Part shown: in pieces, positions 2,337 to 43,552 of the stretch
Layout: every line of letters begins with the position of its first letter
Numbering within the stretch: the stretch's first letter is position 1
Source of the DNA: Eledone cirrhosa
Taxonomy: Eukaryota
Direction: 5' to 3'
DNA: 64,000 nucleotides
Assembly (NCBI GenBank): GCA_964016885.1
Contig: OZ024742.1
Coordinates: 321,098,001-321,162,000, forward strand
The notes under the pieces: generated by a model
Seen by the model: the letters and a program-made list of their open reading frames with translations, nothing else
Database searches by the model: none
What the model was told of the DNA's origin: nothing
Program-made: the position numbers and the translations under genes

Positions 2337-2641
2337 TTAATCGAGTATACCCACTCCAAATTGTATTTTAATTAGGAACTACTACTATTGTATTTGCTGT
2401 TATTTATATTTACTGCTAGGTCATCACTGATCTATGACTAACGGCGTTCCAGCTATGACAATCCCGTCATTTGAATATCACTATTTACATTGTCTTGGTG
2501 TATCTTTCCTTCTTCATTCCGACGGATGACTGTGTATATATAACAGAGGATGTATTGTCCAGCGTGTCTTTCCTATTTGTAAGAAAGTAGGATATGATTT
2601 CGGGGATATTTTTCTGCTGCTACGAATATATATATATATAT

Positions 2642-2714
2642 AAATGGAAGCTTTCACCGTATTTTTTACTAAAGAAATTTTAGCTAAACTTTCTTTAGTA
2701 AAAAATACACCAAA

Positions 2715-2764
<50 letters not shown>

Positions 2765-2841
2765 AGCTTTTGCTGTATTTTTTACTAAAGAAAGTTTATC
2801 TAAAATTTCTTTAGTCAAACATACGGCGAAAGCTTCCATTT
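2642..2841. repeat. Inverted duplicate pair of self-palindromic ~75-bp units separated by (TA)n
   Basis: AAATGGAAGCTTTC..TTTTTTACTAAAGAAA..TTTCTTTAGTAAAAAA (2642-2720) is the reverse complement of 2763-2841. Confidence 0.8.
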
Positions 2842-2873
2842 CTATTTTCAAACTCTCTCGCTGTTTCAAAACA

Positions 2874-2919
<46 letters not shown>

Positions 2920-2922
2920 TAT

Positions 2923-3021
<99 letters not shown>

Positions 3022-3463
3022 TGAATATATACATATATTAAGACCTTAATCACGCAGGGCAACTTTTCAAATTCATATCTATTTAAACTTTACACCGCCT
3101 GCGAACTATTCTTTTCTCTCTCTCTCCCTCTCTCCCTCTCTCTCTGTTCATCCCGTGTTGTGTCTGTCTATATAGGACTTATGTCAAAACGAGTAATTTA
3201 TTTCTATTAATGTTTGTATATTCTCTGTCTATTCCACCTCTTTCCCATTTCGCCTTCTGTGCATACATTTTCTTATTGGCTAATATGTTGGGGTTTGTAT
3301 CTCTTCTTTCTAGTTGCACAACATTGGTTTGTAGCTAATTTTATTGCATTTTAAATAGTCAAAAGACCAATCACCATGTCTTGTGTCCAATTGTTAGTGT
3401 CCCATGTGCACTGGAGCTAGTTGTATCGACCTTAACGGATCGAAAGCCCAATGGTCGACTGGT

Positions 3464-3520
3464 GAGAAAGGATTGACCTGTGTTTCGTCCGGTTTTCCGT
3501 TGTCTTCGCTCACCTTTTTC
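3464..3520 (-). ncRNA. Degenerate type I hammerhead-like motif
   Basis: Minus strand: GCGAAGA caacggaaaaccggac GAAA cacagg TC. The first core box is mutated and stem II is only partly paired. Confidence 0.4.
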
Positions 3521-3545
3521 ATTTATTTTATATGATCTTAGCAAC

Positions 3546-3601
<56 letters not shown>

Positions 3602-3785
3602 GTCGCTAAGATCATATATATATATATATATATATATAAGAATATATATATACTTTTATGAAGTGTAGTTGTCTGGATGTTATTGTTTTTCGTAGACAAC
3701 AGAACATGGTGGTTTTCAGTATCTTGTTAGCCTGGCCAAGGCTTACGATATTTCGTTTCTGAATTTGTTTAAACAAATTCAGAAA

Positions 3786-3874
<89 letters not shown>

Positions 3875-3875
3875 A

Positions 3876-3906
<31 letters not shown>

Positions 3907-4005
3907 CACATACACCAATTAAACAAAGTTACAGGGATATATGTGTTTTGGCAACTTTTCACGATGTGGCTCAATGGAGAATTAATAAATTAATCAAAGC
4001 GAAAT

Positions 4006-4417
4006 ACTATAGAGTAAAGCATGTCCAGAGAATTATTTGATAATATATATACATCATCTCTACTCCCAATCAGCATAATTAACCACACAAAAAATCAATT
4101 AGACCAGACTATAAGAATAAAAGGCATCTATGAAGAAACAGTAAATAAATACGCTATCGTGGCGTCTTCGCGTGCAACCGCTATAGAATATTTACCCAAC
4201 ATTTCAACAGCACGTGGAAATTAATTAAATATACGGTCAACCATAGATAATTAGCGAAGACGCCACGATAGCGTATTTATTTACTGTTTCTTCATAGATG
4301 CCTTTTATTCTTATAGCCTGGTCCAGTTGATTTTTGTGTGGTTAATTATGCTGATTGGGAGTAGAGATGTTGTATATATATTATCAAATAATTCTCTGGA
4401 CATGCTTTACTCTATAG

Positions 4418-4419
<2 letters not shown>
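4006..4419. repeat. Fold-back: ~165-bp inverted arms with ~83-bp spacer
   Basis: 4006-4171 is nearly the exact reverse complement of 4255-4419; flanked by (TA)n. Confidence 0.9.
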
Positions 4420-4453
<34 letters not shown>

Positions 4454-4454
4454 C

Positions 4455-4519
<65 letters not shown>

Positions 4520-4560
4520 GAAATGACAGGAGGCTGGATTTGTGTAAATCCTTGAAAGGT

Positions 4561-4636
4561 TTATTATACTATGATCATTTCAATGACCGGGTTCCGTATG
4601 AATCCGGTGATATCATCAGGTATTCGAAATATAATA
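4561..4636 (-). ncRNA. Type I hammerhead ribozyme
   Basis: Minus strand: tattat..tac CTGATGA t atcaccggattc-atacg-gaacccggtcat t GAAA tgatca TA gtataata. Core intact, long stem II, palindromic stem III loop, stem I with an internal bulge. Confidence 0.8.
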
Positions 4637-4904
4637 CGTGAATGTAATAGATAAAATCCATGGGGCTGAAAATCGAGGACCCGAGGGCGACCGCTATTCT
4701 GTTCCTTCAACCTCAGCCGGTCGCCCTGTCATTTCATTATAATATTTAACTCCGTAATAGCACCACCAACTACAAAAACAAAGACGGTTGAACTGCTTTA
4801 CGTTGAGTACTCTCTATATTATTGCATTACGATTGACCATACGGAATAGACCAGCTCTATACAGTGGTGAACCTCAAACCTGAATATATACATGTATATA
4901 TATA

Positions 4905-27142: not shown

Positions 27143-27195
<53 letters not shown>

Positions 27196-27389
27196 TCTCT
27201 CTCTTACTCACTCTCTCTCTTACTCACTCTTTCTTTTTTTCCCTCTCTCTCTCATACTCTCTTTAATTTTTTCTTCCCTCCCTCTGTGTTTAATGAGCCC
27301 AAATTGTTAAACTCTCTGTTTAACAACCTGTCCTGTATTCAGTAATAAAATACCATTAAAATAATAATAAAAATAATAATAATGATGAT

Positions 27390-27530
27390 TTCTACTAAAG
27401 GCACAAGGCCAGTAATTTGGGGAGAGGGGGAAAGTCGATTAAATCGATCCCAGTGCATTACTGATGCTATATTTTATCGACCTCATAAGGATGAAAGGCA
27501 AAGCTAACCTCGGAGGGATTTGAACTCAAT
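27390..27530 (-). mobile_element. SINE family A, truncated
   Basis: TTTTATCGACC..GGATGAAAGGCAAAGCTAACCTCGGAGGGATTTGAACTCA. Confidence 0.75.
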
Positions 27531-27852
27531 GCCGGAAAGAAGAAGAAGAAGAAGAAGAAGAAGAAGAAGAAGAAGAAGAAGAAGAAGAAGAAGAAGAAGA
27601 AGAAGAAGAAGAAGAAGAAGAAATGCCTGCTACATTTAACGAGATAGAGTGGGTAATGTAAGACAGAGAGAGGAGTGACTGCGGTAGAGGGAGAGGGAGA
27701 GAGACAGCTATAGAAAACAAAAATATATATATAGTGTAAGGGGTGAAAGGATGTAGTGAATGCTTCTACGCACTAAGGTAGTAACTAAATGATGTTTATT
27801 ATAGGAAGGTAAACTGCTTCAAATGAAATCTACAATAGATTAAACACACAAG

Positions 27853-27887
<35 letters not shown>

Positions 27888-28127
27888 CACTCTCTCTCTC
27901 TCTCTCTCTCTCATTCTCTCTCTCTGACACATACACACTTGCACTATATAATCTATCTACAGCTGCTATTACCTAACTAGATACATATATAACCAACCTA
28001 CTTACCAACCTGTCCAGGTATCTACAACCCTAGATATCTACCTACATAGGTGTCTACTTACCTAGATATTTACCTACCTAGGTATTTATATACCTAGGTA
28101 CCTACCTCCCTATCTATCTAACTACAT

Positions 28128-30833
28128 GAGGCAATTAGAAGTGGCAACGTAGCCAGCTTGCTAGCAACGAGAACGGCCTTGGACCAGTTCTTCGACGCAA
28201 AGCACGAGGGCTGCGTTGTCAGAAGCAAAATACGTGCTCTGGGAACCGAGGGAGCCAAAGCTGTTAGCTGGGCCCGAGTGACGGAGGCAAAAAGTGGCAA
28301 CAAGTCCACGATTCGGTCTTTGAAGGACCAAGACGGGCGCGTGATACGTGAGCCGAAGCAGATGTGTGCGGCCTTTCAGCGGCACTTTGCTCAACTGTTC
28401 GGGCAGGGCGGCATGCCGGGAGGGGCTATGGATTTCGGTCCATACCTCGACGGCCTACCGCGACTCTCGGATAGCGAGGCGAAGTTCCTCGAAAAGCCGA
28501 TTTCAGCCGCTGAGATAGGGGACGCGCTGAGCCAATGCGGCAAACGCAAATCTCCAGGTCTCGACGGTCTACCCTACGAATTTTACGTAGCAATATCGGA
28601 CTTGTTCTCCGGTTTCCTGAAAGCGGTCTACTGCAACTGGCAGCAGAACGGGAGAATTCTCAGTTCTGTGACCGGGGGCGTAGTCACACTAGTCAGGAAG
28701 GACGAGAATAGGGGGGATTACATAGGCCCATAACTCTGCTAAACACAGAGTTACAGATTTTGGCCAAGGTGTTGGCAAAGAGGCTGGCGCTTGTCGTCGA
28801 GAACCTGGTGAGAGAAGCGCAGACATGCGCAATCCCAACCAGGTCCATACACGACAACCTCCACCTCACGCGATACATCATAGAGAGGGTAGGGTGTAAA
28901 CCCGGCTTTGGTGGGGCCCTGATCAACTTGAATCAGTCTATGGCTTTCGATAGGGTTGACCATCGTTACCTCGATGCGGTGCTCGAGGCGGCAGGCTTCG
29001 GACCCGTGTTCAAGGGCTAGATTGCTGCAATGCAACATCTGCTCAAGGGTCAATGTGAACGGCTACCTCTCGGATCCGTTCCATATCATGCGATCCATTC
29101 GACAGGGATGCCCTCTCTCCTCCCTTCTGTACGTACTGACTCTCGAGCCACTACTGCGGAAGTTGGAGCTATTGCAGGGCATCCCTCTGGAACCGGGACT
29201 GCGGAAAGCGGCGTCGGCCTACGCCAACGACGTGACAGTAATGGTGTCGAGCACCTCGCAAATCGAGGAGGTCGGCACCTTACTGAAGGAATACGAAAGG
29301 TTCACAGGAGCGAAGCTGAACCGGGACAAGTCCATCGGTTTGCAACTTGGATTGTGGAGAGGCAAACCGATGCCTTCCGATGGCGTCGTCGGACGCTGGA
29401 CGGAAGGACCGGTAAAGCTGCTCGGGGTCTGGTTTGGTCAGGACATCCAGGTGGAGAAGAACTGGAACGAGGTGACGGCCAAGGTGTTTGCACTCACCCA
29501 GAAGTGGGCCGAGTGCAAACTATCCTTGAAAGGTCGAGCGGAGGTGGCGAACACTTTTATAGCGTCCGCCATCTACTACCGCTTGACCGTCGTGCTTTAT
29601 CCAACCAAAACGCTCACCAAAATGGAGCGCGCTCTTCCAATTCCTTTGGAAGAGGCGTGCTCTTTTGGTGAGAAGATCCATCTGCTGCCAACACCCTTCC
29701 AACGGAGGGCTGGGGATGCCGTGGCTGACGATGCGCAAACACGCGCTAAGGCTGGGACATCTCTACATATTCCTCACCGGACAACCGGTGTGGGCCCCGT
29801 TCGTGAGGCAAGCCTTCCCACCACTCGTCTCGCTGACCGAGCTGCAGCCCTGGGTCAATCAAAGGCCGAGGAAAATGGGCGACTGGCACATCGAATGTGC
29901 TCAGGCGCTCACTCCTCTGGCAGGCGGACCCGGCGATCAGTAGAGACTCCACTTCGTCATTCTATAGAGGGTTGATCTGCAGCAAGTGCGACGACGCGCT
30001 CGATGAAACTCTAGGCGTAGAGGAAGACGAACTGGCCAGTCTGTTCGGTAGGACCTTCCGCCCGGGACCGATGGACAACTTCCAAAAGTCCCTGGCCTGG
30101 CAGTGCTACCGAGGAGCTCTACCAGTTCGAGACAAGCTCTACAGACATGGGCGCCCGAGCAGGGACCCTTCGAAAAAGATCTGTCCGAGGTGCGTGCGAG
30201 ACGAAGAAACCGTCGCGCACGCATTCATACACTGCCCGGGCGTTACCGACCTGTGGGGCTATGTAGAACGACTATTGTCGCGGGTTGGACCAATCCGGTT
30301 GACCACCGAGTCCATTGTCATGATCAAACCGCCACCCTCCTTCAAAAACGAAGGAGAGGCGGTTTTCCTTTGTGTGATAGCTATGGCGAAAGAGGTTGTA
30401 TGGTGGACAAGGTTGAAAGGGCTGAGGTCAGACACCTTTCTCTCCGGCCAACAACTGATTCTTTTTTTCAAATACCACATTAGAAGAAGAATCAGGATGG
30501 AGAGAGAGATGCTGTACCCCAGCAAGTTTTATGAAAGGTGGGTGAAAGTGGCGAGAATGGCCCGACTGAATGGGCCTTCTCTCTATATCAGTCTGTAGGT
30601 TGAGGAAAAAGAGGAAGAGAGGAAAGGGGTACAAACTCTTCGTACTCCTGGAGATGAGGGTTGCACATTTTTTCGGGGGTATGTGTTACCCATATGTAAT
30701 GTCTCCCCCTATTGGGGAAAATCGACTAATTTTTAAATTGCATTTGTGATAATATTTTACACGTTTTTATTGTAAGTAAACTTCCCCGTTTGTATTTGTC
30801 CCCTTCTTTTGTGCCCCTGTGGCTAATAAAGAA
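28128..30833 (+). mobile_element. Tx1/L1-clade LINE copy 1 (5'-truncated, frameshifted)
   Basis: KSPGLDGLPYEFY, AFDRV, IRQGCPLS, C-terminal CPRC..E..HAFIHC; ends CCCTGTGGCTAATAAAGAAA followed by (TATC)n; preceded by CTATCTATCTA. Confidence 0.92.
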
Positions 30834-30861
30834 ACATATCTATCTATCTACATATCTATAG

Positions 30862-31143
30862 ACCTTCTCTGTATATAAACCTGTAGGTTGAGGAAGATAA
30901 ACAGAAGGAAGACGGGAACACCTACAAATTGTGTTCCTGGTGTGGAGGGTTGTTCTATCCATTGGGTGTAAAACAACCCCACAGTAGCGCCCCCCCCCCA
31001 CCCCCACCATAATGGGGATTTCAATTGTTTTATTTTTATATAGTTTGTTGTTATTTATCATTGTTGAAGACTTTATGTAAAACACCCGCCGTCACGTCTT
31101 GTAATGTCCCATTTTTGTGCGCCCCTGTGGCAAATAATGAAAG
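30862..31143 (+). mobile_element. Tx1-like 3' UTR-only fragment, diverged subfamily (copy 2)
   Basis: CCTTCTCTGTATATAAACCTGTAGGTTGAGGAAG..CCCTGTGGCAAATAATGAAAG between ATCT repeats. Confidence 0.8.
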
Positions 31144-31168
31144 ATATTTATCTATCTATCTATCTATT

Positions 31169-31582
31169 TGAGGTCAGACACCTTTCTCTCCGGCCAACAA
31201 CTGATTCTTTTTTTCAAATACCACTTTGGAAGAAGAATCAGGATGGAGAGAGAGGTGCTGTACCCCAGCAAGTTTTATGAAAGGTGGGTGAAAGTGGCGA
31301 GAATGGCCCGAGTGAATGGGCCTTCTCTCTATATCAGCCTGTAGGTTGAGGAAAAGGAGGAGGAGAGGAAAGGAGTACAAGCTCTTCGTACTCCTGGAGA
31401 TGAGGGTTGCACATTTTTTTTAGGGGGTATGTGTTACCCATATAAACTGTCTCCCTCTATTGGGGAAAATCGACTAACTTTTAAATTCCATCTGTGATAA
31501 CATTTTACACGTTTTTATTGTATGTAAACTTCCCCCTTTGTATTTGTCCCCTTCTTTTGTGCCCCTGTGGCTAATAAAGAAA
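31169..31582 (+). mobile_element. Tx1-like 3' fragment (copy 3)
   Basis: Almost identical to 36612-37025; flanked by (TATC)n. Confidence 0.9.
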
Positions 31583-31817
31583 TATATCTATCTCTCTATC
31601 AGTCGTGTGTCACTTCGCGGAGAAGTTTCCGTTAATTTATGTAAGAAAAAAACGTGAGTTTTTAGTTAAATTTTATATCATTGTGTAACTTGACCACCCG
31701 TCTGGACCTTCAGCTGGTGGGTCAACTCATTTTCGCCCCTTCAGGGGCGGAATATCCATTTAAAAAATTTTTCTCCATCGAATCTTGGAAAAAATATTGT
31801 AAAATTTTGATTACGTT

Positions 31818-33716
31818 ATGAACACTGCGTCCAACGATAATGGTGGTGGAGAGGCGGTAAGACTCCAAAGCTCGCAGTCAACAACGTCTTCTTCACTAGA
31901 TACTATAGAGATGGAAAGACAAAATGAAAATAAAAAAACGAATTCACATCCAAACAACACAAATGACACCAAACAGCTCAATGACAACAAAAATAACAGC
32001 AAAACCAATAATGATGATAAAAGCAACAATGATAACAACAACAAAGAAAAAAATAAAGACAACGCCAATAACACCAGCATCAAAGACAACAACAACACCA
32101 AGGAAAATACGGATGATACCAACATCGGTGACAACAAGAATAACAACAACAATAACAACAATAATGACAACACCACCAATACGGATTCCACAAAGAAACC
32201 AAAAATCTCCTTTGCGGAGAAAGTTCAAAAGAAAGAACAATTGATATATCTCGACATAACAAATGCTGAACACCTTTTAAAGGACGCTAAGAGATATGTC
32301 ACCTTCGAAAAAAATGGTGCTTTCAGCATCAATTCTCCGGTAGAAATGCGCAAGGAAACTGCTCTCAAAACGATAGTTTTTAGGACAGTTTCCAATTCTA
32401 CCCGAAAACCAGTCCAATTGTCACAGAAAGATATTGAACTGGTTTTCAAAGATTCAATGAATGATATTGCATTCATTCAAAGAAGCAAACTTTTTGGGAG
32501 TATTTCGGTGCTCATGAAGGATCAATTGACGGCCCAAAATTACTCTGTGTCGCCAATTGTATCCAACCTGTACACCTTTTTCCCTACATACATGGGAAAA
32601 AGGACACAAAAGATCAGAATCACGAGTGTCACACCAAAGGTGAACATATGGTGGATACTGTGCGGCTTCATCAATTTTGATGAAGACAGAATACTGTCAG
32701 TAGGAAAGTCCCCCAGAGATGTATTCAATGGGACTAGCATTGAAGTTCTGGTGCAAATGAGCCCAGAGCGAATAGCTATGATCCCACAGCGTGTACTCCT
32801 GGACGGACTCACCTACATAAACCTTTCGGTTGAGGGTAGGCGGCCTTCATGTTACCATTGCTTTAGCAGGGGTCACCTGAGGGCTTCCTGTCCTAAACTA
32901 ATGAACCAAAAAAAGGCTCTTCTGCCGACACCCATCAAAACAACACAACCACCAACACCACCACAACAACAACAACACCAACACACAAAAATAACCACAA
33001 CAAACACAGTCCCACCCAACCCCACTCCACCTAAAACCACTGCAAAATCACATACAGACACAACAGCTCCCCAAGACATACCCCTCCCCAATCACAGAGA
33101 CGATACAACAGATGAGGCTGTCTCGCCATCACCCAGTGAAGACGAGGGAGAACCCCATCGCTCGAAAAGAAAGAAAAGACATCACAAAAGCAAAAAAACA
33201 GCAAACACTACCACAAACATACAACCACCAAGACAAACAAAACCCCCACCTCCTGAAAACAAAACACCTACAACAAAAGGAAAGCACACACAAGAACTAC
33301 AGACAAAAACAAACACAACACAAGAAAATTGCACTTACACTTACATAAACACTGAAAACAAAACACTAATGGAGACCATCACGAACGACCCTTCGGTGAA
33401 AACCGAAGGGAAAACTTTCGCCCACTCTATTAAAAATAGCAAAAAACTAAACCTAAAACTGATTAGGGTCCCTATACAAACTTATAGGTCCCTAAAAGAA
33501 ACATTTAAGAAGGATGTGGGGAATTCCTGCGTGAAACCACTCAACCGCGTCCTTCTCAAATGCCTCCCCACCCCAGACACCCCCATCCCACCAGACCCCA
33601 CCCCACCAAACATCTGCGTCCCCACCCCGCCGGAAACCACCACCCATCCAAACAACCCCTCCAACACCCCCATGGAAATCGTGCGGCCTGGTCCCCAGGA
33701 GGCGAAGGATGAGTGA
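31818..33716 (+). CDS. Tx1/L1-type ORF1 (gag-like nucleic-acid-binding protein), 632 aa, open
   Basis: CCHC knuckle CYHCFSRGHLRASC; Asn-rich N-terminus; Pro/Thr/Lys-rich C-terminus; lies directly upstream of ORF2. Confidence 0.85.
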   Translation: MNTASNDNGGGEAVRLQSSQSTTSSSLDTIEMERQNENKKTNSHPNNTNDTKQLNDNKNNSKTNNDDKSNNDNNNKEKNKDNANNTSIKDNNNTKENTDDTNIGDNKNNNNNNNNNDNTTNTDSTKKPKISFAEKVQKKEQLIYLDITNAEHLLKDAKRYVTFEKNGAFSINSPVEMRKETALKTIVFRTVSNSTRKPVQLSQKDIELVFKDSMNDIAFIQRSKLFGSISVLMKDQLTAQNYSVSPIVSNLYTFFPTYMGKRTQKIRITSVTPKVNIWWILCGFINFDEDRILSVGKSPRDVFNGTSIEVLVQMSPERIAMIPQRVLLDGLTYINLSVEGRRPSCYHCFSRGHLRASCPKLMNQKKALLPTPIKTTQPPTPPQQQQHQHTKITTTNTVPPNPTPPKTTAKSHTDTTAPQDIPLPNHRDDTTDEAVSPSPSEDEGEPHRSKRKKRHHKSKKTANTTTNIQPPRQTKPPPPENKTPTTKGKHTQELQTKTNTTQENCTYTYINTENKTLMETITNDPSVKTEGKTFAHSIKNSKKLNLKLIRVPIQTYRSLKETFKKDVGNSCVKPLNRVLLKCLPTPDTPIPPDPTPPNICVPTPPETTTHPNNPSNTPMEIVRPGPQEAKDE

Positions 33717-33749
33717 TCTCTTTTCCTCTTTTAACTTTTCAGCACCAAC

Positions 33750-36700
33750 ATGGCCAATATAAGAGTTGGATGTGTGAACGTACGCGGCCTGGGGATGCCC
33801 TGGAAACAGGGCAAACTCTTAAACGACCTCAGGTCGCACAGTTTGGATGTGGTAGCCATTTGCGAGTCCAGGATCCACGGCGAGCGACAGCTGGCCCCCA
33901 TCTTCGATGACTTTGAGATCTACGCATCTCTCTGTCAACCGGGGGGTGGGGGCGGAGTTGCCGTTTTGCTGCGGAAACACCTGGACCTCGTAACACAGAC
34001 GGTACATCTGGACCCGGAGGGTCGACTGGTGGTCCTAGACGTTGACGGTAGTGAAGGTGGAGCGTTCAGGCTGGTGGCCGCATATGCCCCATCCGGGACA
34101 CCGCGGCCAAACTTCTTCAAACGTCTAGAGACTTTTCTGGGAACGTCCCGCTCCTTGCTTTTAGTGGGGGACTGGAATGGAATCCTAGGTGCACGTTGGG
34201 ACTATGTGGGAGCATGTCCCGATAAAGGGGGGTATAACAACCTGAAACAGTTAATCGACCGATTTGAACTGGCCGATAGATATCGACTAGATTTTCCGAC
34301 TGCGCCACTGTGGACGTGGAGTAATCGTAGCGGAGCATCTAGATCGTACCTAGATAGGGTTCTAGTTAGAAATAAGGATAGGGACATGTTAAGCTGTCCA
34401 CAAATGTTCATGGTTGCCTATTCAGATCACAAACTAGTGACCTGCATGGCCAACCTTGATAGAACCCATAGAGAAGGACCCGGCTACTGGAAGCTGAACT
34501 TGTCGTTACCGACAAACAAAGCCTACAGTAGACGGATTAGCACTTTAGTTAAACGGCACTTGACAGGGGCCATTGTCAACAACAGATGGTGGTACTCTCT
34601 CAAGAGGGCAGTTAGATTAGACTCGATAGTTTTTAGTAAAGAATTAGCGTTAGATAGAAATAGAACCGAGAAGGAACTGGTAGATAAAGTAGAAGAGGCA
34701 ATTAGAAGTGGCAACGTAGCCAGCGTGCTAGCAACGAGAACGGCCTTGGACCAGTTCTTCGACGCAAAGCACGAGGGCTGCGTTGTCAGAAGCAAAATAC
34801 GTGCTCTGGGAAACGAGGGAGCCAAAGCTGTTAGCTGGGCCCGAGTGACGGAGGCAAAAAGTGGCAACAAGTCCACGATTCGGTCTTTGAAGGACCAAAA
34901 CGGACGCGTGATACGTGAGCCGAAGCAGATGTGTGCGGCTTTTCAGCGGCACTTTGTTCGGCTGTTCGGGGGGAGCGGCGCGCCGGGAGAGGCTATGGAT
35001 TTCGGTCCATACCTCGACGGCCTACCGCGACTCTCGGACAGCGAGGCGAAGTTCTGCGAAAAGCCGATTTCAGCCACTGAGATAGGGGACGCGCTGAGCC
35101 AATGCGGCAAACGCAAATCTCCAGGTCTCGACGGTCTACCCTACGAATTTTACGTAGCAATGCCGGACTTATTCTCCGGTCTCCTGGAAGCGGTCTACTG
35201 CAACTGGCAACAGAACGGGAGAATTCCCAGTTCTGTAACCGGGGGCGTAGTCACACTAATCAGGAAGGACGAGAATAAGGGGGATGACATAGGCAACTTC
35301 CGGCCCATAACTCTTCTAAACACAGAGTTACAGATTTTGGCCAAGGTGTTGGCAAAGAGGCTGGCGCTTGTCGTCGAGAACCTGGTGGGAGAAGCGCAGA
35401 CATGCGCGATCCCAACCAGGTCCATACACGACAACCTCCACCTCATGCGATACATCATAGAGAGGGTAGGGTGTAAACCCGGCTTCGGTGGGGCCCTGAT
35501 CAACTTGGATCAGTCTAAGGCTTTCGATAGGGTTGACCATCGTTACCTCGATGCGGTGCTCGAGGCGGCAGGCTTCGGACCCGTGTTCAGGGGCTGGATT
35601 GCTGCAATGCACAACAGCAACATCTGCTCAAGGGTCAAGGTGAACGGTTACCTCTCGGAACCGTTCCATATTACGCGATCCATTCGACAGGGATGCCCTC
35701 TCTCCTCCCTTCTGTACGTACTGACTCTCGAGCCACTACTGCGGAAGTTGGAGCTATTGCAGGGCATCCCTCTGGAACCGGGACTGCGGAAAGCGGCGTC
35801 GGCCTACGCCGACGACGTAACAGTAATGGTGTCGAGCGCCTCGCAAATCGAGGAAGTCGGCACCTTACTAAAGGAATACTAAAGTCTCACAGGAGCGAAG
35901 CTGAACCGGGACAAGTCCATCGGTTTGCAACTCGGATCGTGGGGAGGCAGAACGATGCCTTCCGATGCCTTCCGGTGTGGGTCCCGTTCGTGAGGCGAGC
36001 CTTCCCACGATTCGTCTCGCTGACCGAGCTGCAGTCCTGGGTCAAGCAGAGACCAAGGAAAATGGGCGACTGGCACATCGAATGTGCTCAGGCGCTCACA
36101 GCCCTCTGGCAGGCGGACCCGGCGATCAGTGGAGACTCCACTTCGTCATTCTATAGAGGATTGGTCCGCAGCAAGTGCGACGACACGCTCGGTGAAACTC
36201 TAGGCGTAGAGGAAGATGAACTGGTCAGTCTGTTCGGTAGGACCTTCCGCCCGGGACCCATGGACAACTTCCCAAAGTCCCTGGCCTGGCAGTGCTACCG
36301 AGGAGCTCTACCAGTTCGAGACAAGCTCTACAGACATGGGCGCCCGGGCAGGGACCCTGCAAAAAAGATCTGTCCGAGGTGCGTGCGAGACGAAGAAACC
36401 GTCGCGCACGCATTCACACACTGCCCGGGCGTCATCGACCTGTGGGGCTATGTAGAACGACTATTGTCGCGAGTGGGACCAATCCAGTTGACCACCGAGT
36501 CCATTGTCATGATCAAACCGCCACCCTCCTTCAAAAACGAAGGAGAGGCGGTTTTCCTTTGTGTGATAGCTATGGCGAAAGAGGTTGTATGGTGGACAAG
36601 GTTGAAAGGGCTGAGGTCAGACACCTTTCTCTCCGGCCAACAACTGATTCTTTTTTTCAAATACCACTTTGGAAGAAGAATCAGGATGGAGAGAGAGGTG

Positions 36701-36787
36701 CTATACCCCAGCAAGTTTTATGAAAGGTGGGTGAAAGTGGCGAGAATGGCCCGAGTGAATGGGCCTTCTCTCTATATCAGCCTGTAG
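33750..36787 (+). pseudogene. Tx1/L1 ORF2 (APE endonuclease, reverse transcriptase, C-terminal Zn motif); stop at 35880-35882 and ~400-bp deletion at ~35970
   Basis: NVRGL, ICESR, VGDWN, SYLDRV, YSDH; FRPITLLN, DQSKAFDRV, RQGCPLS, AYADD; comparison with copy 1 shows GAA>TAA and loss of the region matching ~29382-29784. Confidence 0.92.
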
Positions 36788-37200
36788 GTTGAGGAAAAGG
36801 AGGAGGAGAGGAAAGGAGTACAAGCTCTTCGTACTCCTGGAGATGAGGGTTGCACATTTTTTTTAGGGGGTATGTGTTACCCATATAAACTGTCTCCCTC
36901 TATTGGGGAAAATCGACTAACTTTTAAATTGCATCTGTGATAACATTTTACACGTTTTTATTGTATGTAAACTTCCCCCTTTGTATTTGTCCCCTTCTTT
37001 TGTGCCCCTGTGGCGAATAAAGAAATATATCTATTTGTCTGTCTATCAATCTTCATAAATGCCTACTTTTCGACGTATTAACATAATTACTTACCTACCC
37101 ATCAGCCTACATATATACGTACCTACCTACATCGTTGCTTATCTTCCTATATGTGCATCTACCAACCTAGCTATCTATCTATCTATCTATCTATCTATCT

Positions 37201-39090
37201 GTCGACCATCGATACTTGGAAGCGGTTCTCAAGGCGGCCGGTTTCGGTCCCGTGTTCAGAGGATGGATCGAGGCGATGCACACCAGCATCTGCTCGAGGG
37301 TCAAGGTGAACGGCTACCTATCGGAGCCGTTCGCAATCACGCGTTCCATTCGACAGGGATGCCCTATCTCCTCCACTCTGTATGTATTAACTCTAGAGCC
37401 ACTACTGCGGAAATTGGAGCTGTTGCAGGGCATCCCCCTAGAACCGGGACTGCGCAAAGCGGCGTCGGCTTATGCCGACGACGTGACAGTAATGGTGTCG
37501 AGCACCTCGGAAATCGGGGTGATCGGCAACATACTGAAAGAATACGAAACGCTGACAGGAGCAAAACTAAACCCAGACAAGTCTGTCGGTTTGCAACTCG
37601 GTACGTGGAGAGGCAAACCGATGACATCCGACAGCGTCGTTGGACGCTGGACGGACGGACCGGTAAAATTGCTCGGGGTCTGGTTCGGTCCAGACCTCCA
37701 GGTGGAGAAAAACTGGAACGAGGTCACGGCCAAGGTGTTTGCACTCACTCAGAAGTGGGCAGAGTGCAAACTGTCCTTGAAAGGTCGAGCGGAGGTGGCG
37801 AACACTTTCATAGCGTCCGTCATCTACTACCGCTTGACTGTCGTGCCTTGTCCCCGTGAACACCTCGCCAAGATGGAACGCATGCTCTTCCAGTTTCTGT
37901 GGAAGAAGCAGGCTCCGCTGGTGAGGAGATCCGTCTGCTGTCAGCACCCTTCCAACGGAGGGCTGGGAATGCCGTGGCTGATGATGCGCAAACATGCGCT
38001 GAGGCTGCGGCATCTCCAGGTATTCCTCACCGACCCCCAACCGGTGTGGGCACCGTTTGTGAGACAGGCTTTCCCACAGCTCGTCTCGCTAACGGAGCTG
38101 CAGTCCTGGGTGAAGAAAAGACCGAAAACGATGGGTGCCTGGCACATTGAATGCGCTCAGGCGCTCACAGTCCTCTGGCAAGCGGGCGCAGAAATCAGTG
38201 GAGACTCCACTTCGACATTCTATAGAGGGATTGTACGTTACAAGGGCGACGACGTGCTCGGAGAGACTCTGGGCGTCGAAGACGATGAGCTCACCAGTAT
38301 GTTTGGTAGGACTTTCCGCCCGGGACCTATGGACAACTTCCAGAGGTCCCTGGCCTGGCAGTGCTACCGAGGAGCTCTACCGGTTCGTGACAAGATCTAC
38401 AGGCACGGACGCCCTGGCAGGGATCCTTCCAATAAGACGTGTCCAAGATGTGCGCAGGACATTGAAACAGTTCTGCACGCAATTGTACACTGCCCGGGCG
38501 TAAGCGACCTGTGGAACTATGCAGAACAACTGCTGTCGCGTATGGGACAAATACAGTTGACTGCCGAGTCCATAGTAAGGATCAAATCGCCAGACTCTTT
38601 CAAAAACAAAAGAGAGGCGGTTTTCCTCTGTACGGTGGCTATGGTGAAAGAAGTTATATGGTGGACGAGGTTGAGAGGACTGAGGACAGATGCCTTTCTC
38701 TCCGGACAACAATTGATTCCATTCTTTAAGTATCACTTTAGAAGGAGAATCAGGGTGGAGAGAGAGGCACTGCACCCCAGTAAATTTACTGAAAGGTGGG
38801 TGAATGAAGCGAAAATGGCCCGAGTGATTGGGCCTTCTCTGTTTATAAGCCTATAGGTTGAGGAAGAGAGCAAAAGGAAGAAAGGAGCACTTGCATAACA
38901 CGCTCCTTGAGTTGAGGGTTGTTCTATCGACGGGGTATTAAACAACCCATTTGTGGCGCCTCCCCCCTATTGGGGATTTCGATTGTTGAAATTGTTTGTT
39001 TTTATATTTTTTACACGACTGTATGTAAAATCCCCGGCATGTCTTTGTATTGTCCCCTTTCTTGTTGCGCCCTTGTGGCTAATAAAGAAA
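37201..39090 (+). mobile_element. Tx1-like copy 5, 5'-truncated, diverged subfamily, frame open to its stop (37216-38856)
   Basis: RQGCPIS, AYADD, CPRC..E..HAIVHC; pure (CTAT)n immediately 5' and (TCTA)n immediately 3'. Confidence 0.92.
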
Positions 39091-39106
39091 TCTATCTATC
39101 TATCTA

Positions 39107-39173
<67 letters not shown>

Positions 39174-39327: not shown

Positions 39328-39528
39328 GCGGTGGATTTGCAGTATCGGTAGAGGGTCAGACGCCTTGCTTTGCAGCAAAACGTTACGAACCTTTATGATC
39401 GGAGTTCAAATCCCGCCGAGGTTAACTTTGCCTTTCACGGGGTCGATAAAATAAACTACCAGTAATACACTGGAATAATTGCTGGCCTTGTGCCAAAAGT
39501 AGAAACAATTATTATTATTATTATTATT
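39328..39528 (+). mobile_element. SINE family A with (ATT)n tail
   Basis: GGAGTTCAAATCCCGCCGAGGTTAACTTTGCC..GGCCTTGTGCCAAAAGTAGAAACAATT. Confidence 0.85.
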
Positions 39529-42500
39529 GAGTTTGAACGGACGTCTTTTTGCTCGCTCCCGTAAGTTCACTTATTTACCTATCAAAACTGATTTATTGAA
39601 TTTTTGTTGTTGTGTAAGGCATACAAGCCCTTGGACTTTGCCCTGTGAAGGGGAAAGAATAATATTTGGGCCTTTTGGCCCAAATATTTGAACTTTTTTA
39701 CATTTTAAAAAAATTATCGAGAAAAAACAAAACAAAAAACATGTCTGAGCCACGCCCCCAGCGATATGTCTGCTGTCGTGCGACAACGACGTAGAAGTTG
39801 AGAGGAGCGCTACAGCGAAATTAACACAAATTGATAACACAAACACCACCACAAACAATGTAAACAAAGACACCAATGATACCAATGAGAACTCTAATTG
39901 TGAAAAAAATGACAGTAACAGCGACAACGAAAATACAGATAACAAAAAAAAAATGACAAATGCAACAACAATATCAACGCCACTAACATGAAAACAAATA
40001 GCGACAACAGCAACAATACCAACTGCACCGAGAACAACGGTTGCAACAAAGACAACAATGATAACAGCGACAGTGATAACAACACCAACAAGAACAACGA
40101 CAATGACAACACCAACACTTTAGCTGCGGCAGCAGCAAAAAAGAGGCCATGCTTCAACATGGACCTCTCAAACAAAGATCAAAAGTTGGCCCAGGCATGG
40201 AAGCTCATCAAGCAAGAGCAAACCTGGGCCAACTTAACTGTCCCGGTAGAAGCTATTGAGGCAGTGGAGCGCAGAACGGTGCATTATAGATGTATCTCAG
40301 CACAAACCAAAAAGGGCAGCTTTAATCCCACAAGCAGAAGTCGAAGTCGCGCTGAGGTGCATCAGAGAAGATACCCAATACATAGAGAGGGCAGACAGTA
40401 CGGCACTATTTCGGTGTTGTTCAAGTCAGAAGCCCTCGCTATGAAACACGCTATGACTCCTTGCAAAACCAGCAAGGTCATAATGTACCCCCTCCCACAT
40501 GGGAAAAAGAACGGCCCGTTTCCGCATTCCTAGAATCCCACCAGGACTTGACATGTGGTGGCTTCTGGGATGTGTGATTGTGGAGGGGACGGATACCGTC
40601 CCGATAGAAGTGACCAGAACAGCCAGAGAGGACTGGTCCGGGGTTGACCTGGAGATCCTTCTCCGGATCAGGCCCGAGAATGTGAAGACAATCCCGAACC
40701 ACATCCGCCTTCAGAATGGGACGGTCATTCATATTATGACCGAAGGCTAAAGGCCGCATTGTTTTGTTTGTGGGGAAAAAACCCATTTGCGAGCATTCTG
40801 CCCTCAACTACTGAAAGATGCAAGGGGTCGAAAGGCTCCACTGCTGCCGACGCCGGGGCGATGACCACAACCAACACCAGCACCGGCAAAACCACCAACA
40901 ACACCAATAGAAAGACCACCACCAACATTGACCACCCGGGGTGGGGGAAACGAGGAAAGCTGTCAAATTCCCACTCCCCCCACCCTCCAAATACACACAC
41001 CAATAAAACCATAAACACACACACAGACACACTTACAAACACAGACCCCTCATCTACCAGTAGTGAAGATGAAGAAAAACCAAAATCCCCCAAAATACAA
41101 AAAAGGAAACACAAAAAGAAAAAAAAAACTCAACAAAGCACAAAATCACCCACAATAAAACGCAGACACCACCCACGCAAACATCTCTCCAATAACACCA
41201 ACATCAACACCACCATCACCATCACCAGAATCCCCCAAACGCAAACAACCTAAACAGACGCAAGAACAAATATACACTCAAACATCTGAAACCACAGACA
41301 CCGCACTCACAACAAACACCGCACTCACAACAAACACAAACACAACCGAAACAACACCACCAAAACCATCACCACCACAGCCACGCAAAAAAATAAAATC
41401 ACACCAACAAAACATACAAAACTTCGTGCTCGTCTGGAGGGACAACAAGGAACTGATGGCCCTCGTAGCACGAAGTGAAAATATACAAAAAGATGGGGAA
41501 ATGTTTAAATCGAGCACATTTCGCGTGCCGGAAGATTTGTTTCTGGTGCGAATGTCGCTCGATATATACAAAGAAATACGAGACAGCTTTCCTCGGGACG
41601 TGGGAACCCCGAACGTAAAACCCACTTCAAGACTTTTAAAGGGGTTCCCAAAAGAAATCCCACCAACTATGGAGGTCGAACCACCCGACCTTCACAAGAG
41701 CCCGGAAGGTAAGTAAACCTTTCCTCTCTCTTTTTAACCTGCCAACATGGCCGTATTAAGAGTAGGAAGTTTAAATGTTCGATGCCTGGGATCGTCCTGG
41801 AAGCAGAATCACCTGCTCAACGACATCAGGTCTCTAGAAATGGATGTAATTGCCGTCAGCGAGACCAGGATTTACAACACGCGCGCACTAGCCCCCATTT
41901 TCGACGACTATCAGATCTTTGCATCTGTTAGCTGGCCGGGAATGGGAGGCGGGGTGGCAGTGCTGTTTAGGAAAGGCCTCGATCTCGAGGTAAGGTCGAT
42001 CTTCCGGGACCCGGACGGGATGTTGGTGGTCCTGGACGTGAACAATAACGAAGGTGGTGCCTTTAGACTGGTGGCCGTCTATGCTCCTACTGGGGCAGGA
42101 CGGCCGGACTTCTTTAGACGCCTGGCAGCCTTTCTGGGTACGTCTCGCCCTTTACTGTTAGCGGGGGACTGGAACGGCATCTTAGACGCACGATGGGACT
42201 GTGTGGGAGTATCCGATAGGAGCGGGGGGTGCAAAAGCCTCAAGAACCTGATCAGCCAGTTCCAACTATCTGACAGGTACCGACTAGATTTCCCTAATAC
42301 GCCAGTGTGGACCTGGACTAACCGCATAGGGTCATCTAGATCGTATATAGACAGGATATTCATTAGGAAAATAGACAGAAATAGTGTAAGCTGTCCACGT
42401 TTTGAAACGGTCGCCTATTTAGATCACAAGTTTGCGATCTGTAGGGTCGACCTAACACCCTGGCCAAAATCTTAAACTCTGTGTTGAGCAGAGTTATGGG

Positions 42501-43552
42501 CCTGAAATTGTCTAATGTGTCTCTCTTGTTCTCGTCTTTCCTTATCAGCGTCACTACGTCCCGGCTCACAGATGCCAGTCACCCAGTCTCGGTCTCTTCT
42601 TGACCCAGGACTGCAGCTCAGTCAAAGTGGCTGCGGCATCTTCAGATATTCTGCCTAAACGGTGAACAGGTGTGGTCGCCGTTTGTCAGACGGGCCTTTC
42701 TGCAGCTCGTTTCTTTGACTGAGCTGCAATCCTGGGTCAAGAAGAGACCGAGACTGGGTGACTGGCATCTGTGAGCCGGGGCGTAGTGACGCTGATAAGG
42801 AAAGACGAGAACAAGAGGGACACATTAGACAATTTCAGGCCCATAACTCTGCTCAACACAGAGTTTAAGATTTTGGCCAGGGTGTTAGCGAAGAGGTTGG
42901 CGCTTGTCGTCGGGGATTTGGTTGGGGAGGCGCAAACTTGCGCAATCCCAACCAGGTCCATACACGACAACCTCCACCTAATGCGATACATCATAGAGAG
43001 AGTAGGGTGTAAACCTGGCTTCGGTGGGGCTCTGATCAATTCAGATCAATCGAAAGCATTCGATAGGGTCGATCATCGGTTCCTGGAGGCTGTCCTCGAG
43101 GCGGCTGGCTTCGGCCCCGTCTTCAGAAGATGGATCGGTGTAATGCACAGCGGCACCTGCTCGATGGTCAAAATTAATGGCCACCTCTCGGAACCGTTTC
43201 AGGTCTCTCGATCGGTCCGTCAAGGGTGCCCTCTCTCCTCCGTTCTGTACGTATTAACTCTCGAGCCTTTACTGCGGAAGCTGGAGCTGTTGCAGAGCAT
43301 CCCGCTCGAACCGGGACGCGGAAAGACTGTGTCGGCTTATGCGGACGACATCACCGTGATGGTGTCGGACACCTCAGAAATCGAGGTGGTCGGCAACTTA
43401 TTGGAGGAATATGAAAGGGTGACGGGAGCAAAACTTAACCCGGAAAAGTCGGTGGGCTTGCAACTCGGCACCTGGAGAGGTAAGTCCATGCCGTCCAACA
43501 GCGTCGTTAGGCGCTGGACGGACGGACCGGTAAAGTTGCTAGGGGTTTGGAA
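39529..43552 (+). mobile_element. Older Tx1-like copy 6: frameshifted ORF1, APE, scrambled RT, 3'-truncated
   Basis: ORF1 remnants homologous to copy 4 (YGTISVLFK, MGKRT..WWLLG); APE 41747-42450; RT 42771-43550 with SKAFDRV, RQGCPLS, AYADD. Confidence 0.88.

Follow-up and report, generated by a model that had tools for sequence, protein, structure and literature searches.

A Tx1-like LINE family of Eledone cirrhosa that appears to insert specifically into (ATCT)n microsatellites

Introduction

Some long interspersed nuclear elements (LINEs) insert into microsatellites, and the sources cited here name (TC)n, (TTC)n, (TTCC)n/(TTTC)n, (AC)n, (ACAY)n, (TG)n and (TAA)n as their targets. The closest described systems are Kibi, specific for (TC)n, and Koshi, specific for (TTC)n, both Tx1-clade LINEs of teleost fish (Kojima and Fujiwara 2004, cited in PMC4494074 and PMC3812793). 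Other cases are Waldo, (ACAY)n, and Mino, (AC)n, which are insect LINEs of the R1 clade, and Dong, (TAA)n, of the R4 clade (PMC3812793), as well as the (TG)n-specific Togen elements (PMC4640811). Here we describe a stack of LINE copies at 28120-39109 of a 64,000-nt stretch of DNA from Eledone cirrhosa (contig OZ024742.1, positions 321,098,001 to 321,162,000, forward strand; hereafter the window). The stack very probably represents five independent same-strand insertions of an L1/Tx1-group LINE with an apurinic/apyrimidinic-type endonuclease (APE), a family that, judged from its sequence and flanks, would insert specifically into (ATCT)n/(GATA)n by target-primed reverse transcription.

Like Kibi and Koshi, the family is an APE-type LINE of the L1/Tx1 group, lies in one orientation in its microsatellite, and has related lineages associated with different repeats, here ATCT and ATT. 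It differs from them in its tetranucleotide target, in its host, which is a mollusc and not a vertebrate, and in sharing only about 30% identity with Tx1-labelled fish proteins. Head-to-tail trains of copies are documented here; we did not find them described for Kibi or Koshi in the portions of PMC4494074 and PMC3812793 available to us. Crocodilian Tx1 families (PMC4494074) are likewise Tx1-type and have a tetranucleotide preference worked out from flank analysis, but their repeat unit and host are others and they are said to be 'preferentially' inserted, whereas here 26 of 30 full-length copies qualify. Waldo and Mino resemble the family in being APE-type and microsatellite-specific, and differ in belonging to the R1 clade, whereas the second open reading frame (ORF2) of the present element is nearest to L1/Tx1-type proteins. 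Human L1 integrates by target-primed reverse transcription, in which the RNA tail pairs with the nicked strand. It has the same domain order as the present element and gives the best solved-structure match, but it ends in poly(A) and uses loosely defined T-rich sites genome-wide, whereas the family described here both ends in and enters (ATCT)n.

Active cephalopod LINEs of similar size have been labelled 'L1-Tx1' (PMC13282606, PMC8967140), and a term search of the available text of these two repeat papers found no mention of target sites. Full-text literature searches found no LINE targeting ATCT, TCTA or GATA, although an earlier description may exist in Repbase or in the supplement of PMC4494074. 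Judged from the literature found, the kind of element is thus already known, and the (ATCT)n target and the host phylum appear to be new for such behaviour. LINEs confined to particular sites currently attract interest as tools for inserting genes.

ATCT repeats precede sampled copies across the genome

Five copies of one LINE family, belonging to three subfamilies (A, B and C), lie on the same (+) strand within 28120-39109 of the window, as seen by BLAST of copy 4 against the window and in the sequence. Their 5' truncation points differ, every copy body terminates in AATAAAGAAA followed by TATC/ATCT units as an (ATCT)n tail, and the copies are preceded by ATCT-type repeats. Window coordinates are positions in the 64,000-nt stretch, c1-c6 denote copies 1-6, and L-numbers denote loci sampled from the species' own genome, a 3.0-Gb assembly. 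For each query the sample consisted of the best-scoring, and hence youngest, 40 of 450-1629 first-look candidates.

The 230-nt 5' end of the full-length element gave 1031 first-look candidates, of which 40, scored at 98-100% identity, share the 5' end of c4. The resulting flank set comprised 30 full-length loci, one being the window's own copy. A perfect same-strand run of at least three ATCT units ended within 25 nt upstream of 26 of the 30 5' ends, and in three of the remaining four the copy directly follows another LINE whose tail is short. All 30 flanks were in the ATCT sense, and CTCTCTATC formed the end of the upstream flank in 26/30 loci. At L059 only CTATCTCTCTATC stands upstream of the full-length copy, which shows that CTATCTCTCTATC belongs to the element.

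Truncated copies provide a useful test, because the upstream repeat cannot be element sequence there. From 3'-end searches with subfamilies A and B, 38 5' junctions were resolvable within 1.5-kb flanks, after exclusion of copies that extended beyond their locus, of the window's own two loci, of L117, where the wrong copy had been anchored, and of the internally deleted copies L018 and L019. The strict criterion, a perfect same-strand (ATCT) run of at least three units ending no more than 10 nt upstream, was satisfied by 25 of these junctions (15/23 in subfamily A and 10/15 in B). In 200 kb of background, composed of twenty 10-kb stretches at round coordinates, the same criterion held at 338 of 399,040 positions (0.085%), so that the observed frequency corresponds to an approximately 780-fold enrichment (binomial P about 8e-68). 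The opposite, AGAT, orientation was found at none of the 38 resolved junctions. The preliminary description of this DNA had named random 5' flanks genome-wide as an outcome that would refute its reading; the samples speak clearly in favour of that reading, and the share of flanks that PMC4494074 takes as a sign of microsatellite preference, more than 20%, is far exceeded (26/30 and 25/38). A laxer flank score (18/24 matches) was dropped in favour of the strict criterion, since (CT)n also qualifies under it and its background is 1.9%. In the older subfamily C, whose copies are 89-92% identical, 4 of 15 resolved junctions satisfied the strict criterion and degenerate ATCT repeats were visible by eye at 13 of 15, a pattern expected from decay with age.

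Such an association could in principle arise passively, if insertion were random and copies survived only in or near harmless microsatellite DNA, an explanation offered for Waldo-A/B, which lie near CA repeats in Drosophila (PMC3812793). Here, with identities of 96-100% and open ORFs, the copies are very young, their junctions are nucleotide-exact and strand-specific, with 0/38 in the AGAT orientation, and the enrichment is about 780-fold in a 3-Gb genome; moreover, selection would be unable to impose a strand orientation relative to a non-coding repeat. Passive accumulation is hardly credible as the source of this pattern.

Several points weigh against specific insertion into (ATCT)n. Target specificity is read from flank statistics, which cover the youngest and best-scoring 40 candidates per query. 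In full-length copies part of the upstream repeat, namely CTATCTCTCTATC, is the element's own sequence, as L059 demonstrates. The strict criterion was failed by 13 of the 38 truncated junctions; several of these are degenerate tracts or short tails (L003, L013, L014, L024 and L118), and in L115 two LINE parts are fused at the break, but others, such as L128, L027 and L030, are real off-target insertions, the tails of L027 and L030 amounting to 1-2 units. Finally, Logan contigs from four public runs on 30600-31900 are mostly shorter than 140 nt (the longest shown being 607), and none of them spans a junction.

The repeat appears to pre-exist at the target

Random integration offers another account of the flanks, in which the 5' (ATCT)n would be made when the reverse transcriptase switches to another RNA's tail, or would result from later growth of the repeat, and the stacks would be single concatemer events. 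Reverse transcriptases of other LINEs are known to jump between templates, and some stacked neighbours are nearly identical, such as c3 and c4 at 99.3%. Random integration predicts duplications of unique sequence outside both tracts. These were not enriched, being found in 3 of 36 cases versus 23 of 701 mispaired controls, which argues against it; two of the three are low-complexity or marginal, and the third is the off-target copy L128. At the tract-edge locus L020, where the tract is short, the ATCT units stand upstream of the unique sequence that was duplicated (about TCTTACACTC) and must therefore have been present before insertion. The same higher-order host repeat stands on both sides of the insertion in L004, in L096 and in the window, and the stacks mix subfamilies of different age (c2 at about 90% versus c3 at 99%). 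On these grounds random integration is very unlikely.

The off-target copies are informative in two further respects. L128, a member of subfamily B, has almost no tail and is flanked by a 14-nt target-site duplication, AATATAATTTATAT, in AT-rich DNA, which indicates that the integration machinery can work outside ATCT. Even off target, L027 and L030 still carry at least ATATCT after AATAAAGAAA, and the tail is therefore part of the element RNA. Together with L020 and the shared host repeats, the missing duplications suggest that the ATCT repeat was already in place at the target and was not introduced by the element. The family would thus show the features of a Kibi/Koshi-type LINE, namely a repeat in a large share of flanks, a fixed orientation, and a repeat that precedes the insertion.

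Structure and relatives of the element

The full-length element, described from 20 full-length own-genome copies, is 5.84 kb long and consists of a 217-nt 5' untranslated region (UTR), an ORF1 of 638 aa, a 33-nt spacer, an ORF2 of 1145 aa and a 3' UTR of about 240 nt, which terminates in ...TGTGGCTAATAAAGAAA followed by (ATCT)n. ORF1 has an Asn-rich N-terminus and a single CX2CX4HX4C knuckle; in a Pfam search of ORF1 nothing was significant, the zf-CCHC match being weak (E 0.24) and RRM not detected. In the intact ORF2 Pfam detected Exo_endo_phos, RVT_1 (E 6e-27) and zf-RVT (E 4e-6; 27.8 bits against a cut-off of 27.5). Exo_endo_phos occupies residues 22-227, with E values of 2e-12 in the window copy and 3e-10 in the intact ORF2. 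On the window this domain maps to 33813-34430, within the interval 33750-34450 in which the preliminary description had placed the APE. It keeps the catalytic motif columns: VNVRGL, ICESR, AYAPS, GDWN, LDRV and SDHK each align with their counterpart in the endonuclease of human L1.

Across copies the 3' end is fixed, the 5' ends start at many internal positions, and terminal repeats are absent. An APE, a reverse transcriptase with zf-RVT, variable 5' truncation and a fixed 3' end would together assign the element to the APE-type LINEs of the L1 group. Of the 20 full-length copies, eight still have two long ORFs, which in five cases measure exactly 638 and 1145 aa, and many copies of the family are 96-100% identical. 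From these near-identical copies and open ORFs, the family looks recently active.

Among solved structures the best match of ORF2 is human L1 ORF2p (e.g. 8sxt; E 9e-51, residues 4-856), and R1/TRAS endonuclease structures gave no match at E <= 0.01. The best named protein match is from the octopod Argonauta hians (63% identity). The nearest vertebrate relative found is a medaka protein (P0097), in a fish group partly annotated 'YTX2' or 'Transposon TX1 149 kDa protein'. By phmmer, ORF2 scored 285-361 bits against four fish proteins, two of them labelled YTX2, 93 bits against a fifth labelled Transposon TX1, 176 bits against human L1 ORF2p and 177 bits against an L1-like protein of Vitis; identity to the Tx1-labelled fish proteins is about 30%. 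In a tree of 38 rows (35 of them hand-chosen hits; LG+G4, SH-aLRT only), which was built without Tx1L, Kibi, Koshi or animal L1 references, the lineage falls into an unresolved group with the Tx1-labelled fish clade, apart from the plant L1-like rows. A Tx1-like identity is consistent with these results, the nearest labelled relatives being Tx1-annotated fish proteins.

The ESM Atlas returned generic APE and reverse transcriptase clusters only, without names or taxa, and a wider protein search gave matches of about 30% identity or below with no informative names. Metagenome contigs were searched for a 40%-identical relative (P0064) that would show its tail, and none of 20 pattern matches was confirmed. 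Public runs of many organisms share 5-45% of the sampled words of window 30600-31900, and the family probably has close relatives in other species; no RNA run was listed among those sharing this stretch.

Insertions form head-to-tail stacks

All 32 additional LINE 3' ends that we found within 1.5 kb of the sampled copies share the strand of the copy beside them (32 versus 0; binomial P 5e-10), with three such ends in total in 200 kb of random sequence. A LINE 3' end lies within 250 nt upstream of 17 of the 30 full-length copies, and these ends have at least five different tail-proximal sequences. The tail tract has a median length of 27 nt in subfamily A and 37 nt in subfamily B and reaches at least 12 nt in 49 of 56 copies, so that each insertion leaves a usable new target. 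The strand bias of neighbouring ends agrees with the head-to-tail arrays from regenerated targets that the preliminary description had envisaged. Free (ATCT)n is common, with 11 tract loci per 200 kb (0.18% of bases), nine of which had no LINE, one held a stack, and one had a LINE end only about 10 nt long.

It might be supposed that misassembly or segmental duplication at this locus created the array in the window, given that c3 is 99.3% identical to the end of c4 and that no public contig spans the junctions. The five copies do not all belong to one subfamily, their truncation points are not shared and their flanks vary, and the same kind of stack occurs at dozens of unrelated loci on many chromosomes. 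Stacks on many chromosomes with differing flanks and subfamilies are not explained by segmental duplication or misassembly, the outcome that would have counted against the preliminary description, and we regard such an origin of the window array as barely conceivable.

We propose that the APE would nick the (AGAT)n bottom strand within the microsatellite, and that the 3' end so released would anneal to the (AUCU)n in which the element RNA terminates, so that reverse transcription would start just past the conserved AAUAAAGAAA. Such pairing would explain why the element has no poly(A) and why its tail varies in length. The top strand would likely be cut some 10-15 nt downstream, as suggested by two informative cases, one at a tract edge and one off target, with duplications of about 10 and 14 nt. 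The 5'-terminal CTATCTCTCTATC of the element possibly aids the joining of the cDNA end to the repeat. Each insertion would leave a new (ATCT)n tail, the tails would become targets, and trains of mixed-subfamily copies would accumulate. A self-renewing tail of this kind would explain the growth both of LINE trains and of long ATCT tracts, and is relevant to repeat annotation and assembly.

A sister lineage on (ATT)n and the choice of target

Downstream of the stack lies copy 6 (39529-43550, +), a member of a sister lineage that is internally rearranged and 3'-truncated and whose APE ORF spans 41747-42475. Its nucleotide identity to c4 by BLAST is about 68% in the APE and 80% in the reverse transcriptase. 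At the protein level the APEs of the two lineages are 62% identical, i.e. 38% of residues differ, and in the 38-row tree the reverse transcriptase of the sister lineage is sister to the ATCT subfamilies (SH-aLRT 97). Copy 6 also holds two short inverted pieces of its own reverse transcriptase region (minus-strand matches at 42454-42572 and 42573-42624; region 42454-42767), which mark its internal rearrangement.

The preliminary description had noted that copy 6 follows (ATT)n and might have a different target. A query with its 5' end gave 1936 first-look candidates, and in all 30 loci examined the 5' end follows (ATT)n, which bears out that remark; a perfect run of at least four ATT units lies within 12 nt upstream in 28 of them, while in two the ATT repeats are imperfect. 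In 11 of the 30 loci the copy is preceded by a LINE-type end, ...AATAAAGAAATC(ATT)n. The 3' terminus reads CCCTTGTGG(C/T)CAATAAAT(G/A)AAATC(ATT)n in 6 of 10 long loci, and no intact ORFs were seen in these 10. The sister lineage thus has the architecture of the ATCT lineage and resembles it in its 3' terminus (CCCTTGTGGCCAATAAATGAAATC), but its tail is (ATT)n and so is its target, so that tail and target have switched together. Among 30 + 30 full-length 5' flanks, neither lineage was found on the repeat type of the other. Dong encodes a restriction-like endonuclease and not an APE. The repeat used by the copy-6 lineage is the same microsatellite as that of Dong, (ATT)n being (TAA)n on the other strand, and since this lineage encodes an APE, which shares 62% of its residues with the APE of the ATCT lineage, the choice of target would be convergent.

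What reads the target can be considered in the light of this pair of lineages; pairing by the RNA tail would be as good a candidate as the APE, and the two may act jointly. One tentative possibility, the version given in the preliminary description, is that the APE alone recognises and nicks (ATCT)n/(AGAT)n, and that the tail arises only incidentally, because priming takes place within the repeat. According to PMC4494074, it is mainly the endonuclease that sets the target in target-specific APE LINEs, and the 38% divergence between the APEs of the ATCT and ATT lineages leaves room for an altered specificity. The off-target copies L027 and L030, however, keep at least ATATCT after AATAAAGAAA, which makes the tail part of the RNA, and the joint change of tail and target in the sister lineage is explained more simply by a contribution of RNA pairing.

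It may instead be that the APE is permissive, cutting for example at a T/A step in AT-rich DNA, and that the tail of the RNA programmes the target by pairing with the nicked strand; this, too, we put forward with considerable reserve. The sister lineages have similar 3' termini and 62% identical APEs, yet different tails and matching targets, with no cross-targeting in 30 + 30 copies. The step AT|A, read from the sequence, is present in both bottom strands, (AGAT)n and (AAT)n, and the off-target copy L128 lies in AT-rich DNA. Against this, the switch could equally reside in the 38% APE divergence, and known target-specific APE LINEs, where tested, use endonuclease specificity (PMC4494074). If the 3' microsatellite tail of the RNA, and not the endonuclease, programmed the target, which is conceivable but doubtful, the ATCT and ATT lineages would amount to a natural tail-swap experiment; a swapped tail on an intact copy would then redirect insertion to another simple repeat, and the element would be a naturally re-addressable LINE. 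A matched sister pair in one genome lets one ask whether the endonuclease or the RNA tail sets the target of a LINE, and the intact copies, together with the ATT sister lineage, make the system experimentally attractive.

The (ATT)n under copy 6 is supplied by a repeat resembling a short interspersed nuclear element (SINE) at 39330-39528 (+), which ends in (ATT)7 at 39508-39528. Its end, ...GCCAAAAGTAGAAACA(ATT)n, precedes at least 8 of the 30 full-length sister-lineage copies as judged by eye, and ARAGORN found no tRNA in it. The SINE-like repeat stands upstream in L132, L143, L144, L148, L151, L157 and L160, and in L165 and L029 it occurs also on the 3' side, right after the LINE tail. The repeat may be a non-autonomous partner, or merely a supplier of (ATT)n targets.

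Anatomy of the stack in the window

The left host flank (27950-28119, +) is a degenerate ACCT/ATCT-type microsatellite remnant, the final 11 or so nucleotides of which read ctatctatcta. Tandem Repeats Finder (TRF) places a degenerate ACCT/ATCT array of period 16, AGGTATCTACCTACCT, at 28016-28125, before c1, and the 5' flank of c1 contains only about 2.5 perfect ATCT units. The other junction repeats reported by TRF lie at 30837-30859, 31145-31167 and 37167-37200, the last being (CTAT)8.5, and at 39091-39109 in the final tail.

Copy c1 (28120-30859, +) is a 5'-truncated member of subfamily A with a body that extends to 30834 and an ATCT-type tail at 30835-30859. It is 94-95% identical to c4 by BLAST over 28120-29382 and 29785-30843, retains the approximately 400 bp that are missing from c4, and contains ORFs in which RVT_1 and zf-RVT were detected. 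Copy c2 (30860-31168, +) represents the final 285 nt or so of the third, older subfamily C, with its body reaching about 31145 and its tail at about 31146-31168. BLAST against c4 gave just a 33-nt and a 47-nt match, and a search of the own genome gave 1629 first-look candidates, its relatives being 89-92% identical. Copy c3 (31169-31600, +) comprises the last 414 nt of subfamily A, to 31582, and a short tail at 31583-31600 that runs into CTCTCTATC upstream of c4; it is 99.3% identical to 36612-37034 of c4.

Copy c4 (31601-37051, +) is a full-length but defective member of subfamily A, with its body ending at 37025 and a degenerate tail at 37026-37051. Its 5' UTR occupies 31601-31817 and its ORF1, with the CCHC knuckle, 31818-33716. 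ORF2 starts at 33750 and encodes the APE at 33813-34430 and the reverse transcriptase from 35280, all on the + strand; it is broken by a stop at 35880 and by an internal deletion of about 400 bp at 35967/35972. A residual host tract (37052-37200, +) follows, degenerate and TACC/TATC-like to about 37166 and then pure (CTAT)8.5 at 37167-37200, where it adjoins c5. Copy c5 (37201-39109, +), a 5'-truncated member of subfamily B, has a body to 39090 and a (TCTA)n tail at 39091-39109, after which (TA)n extends over 39111-39171. It is 78-83% identical to c4 by BLAST and carries a 546-aa ORF with RVT_1 and zf-RVT, and its own-genome copies, from 714 first-look candidates, are 99-100% identical.

This layout bears out what had been read from the letters of the window beforehand: five + strand copies from at least three subfamilies with differing truncation points, for which BLAST and the sequence confirm the coordinates; TATC/CTAT repeats at both junctions of each copy, as seen in the sequence and by TRF, with about 2.5 perfect units before c1; and residual degenerate ACCT/ATCT host sequence, which is found at 27950-28119 and at about 37052-37166.

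Minor observations

Upstream of the stack, window 27145-27925 contains long pure (CT)54, (AAG)28.7 and (TC)35 and is unusually rich in simple repeats. Two copies, L018 and L019 (at about 212.4 and 211.9 Mb), lack the same internal part of the element (positions about 2558 to 4752), have identical 3' flanks, and are probably one insertion copied by segmental duplication. At about 3994-4086 (-) of L070 an (ATCT)n tract is broken by AAAGAAACAT, which looks like a LINE truncated to its last 10 nt or so; some apparent imperfections of ATCT microsatellites may be ultra-short LINE copies. A repeat starting with GGGCGGGTAAAATTCCCG directly follows (TATC)n twice in L061 (6645 and 7589), and its reverse complement adjoins ATCT units upstream in L173 and L188; this repeat may be another element associated with the ATCT microsatellite.

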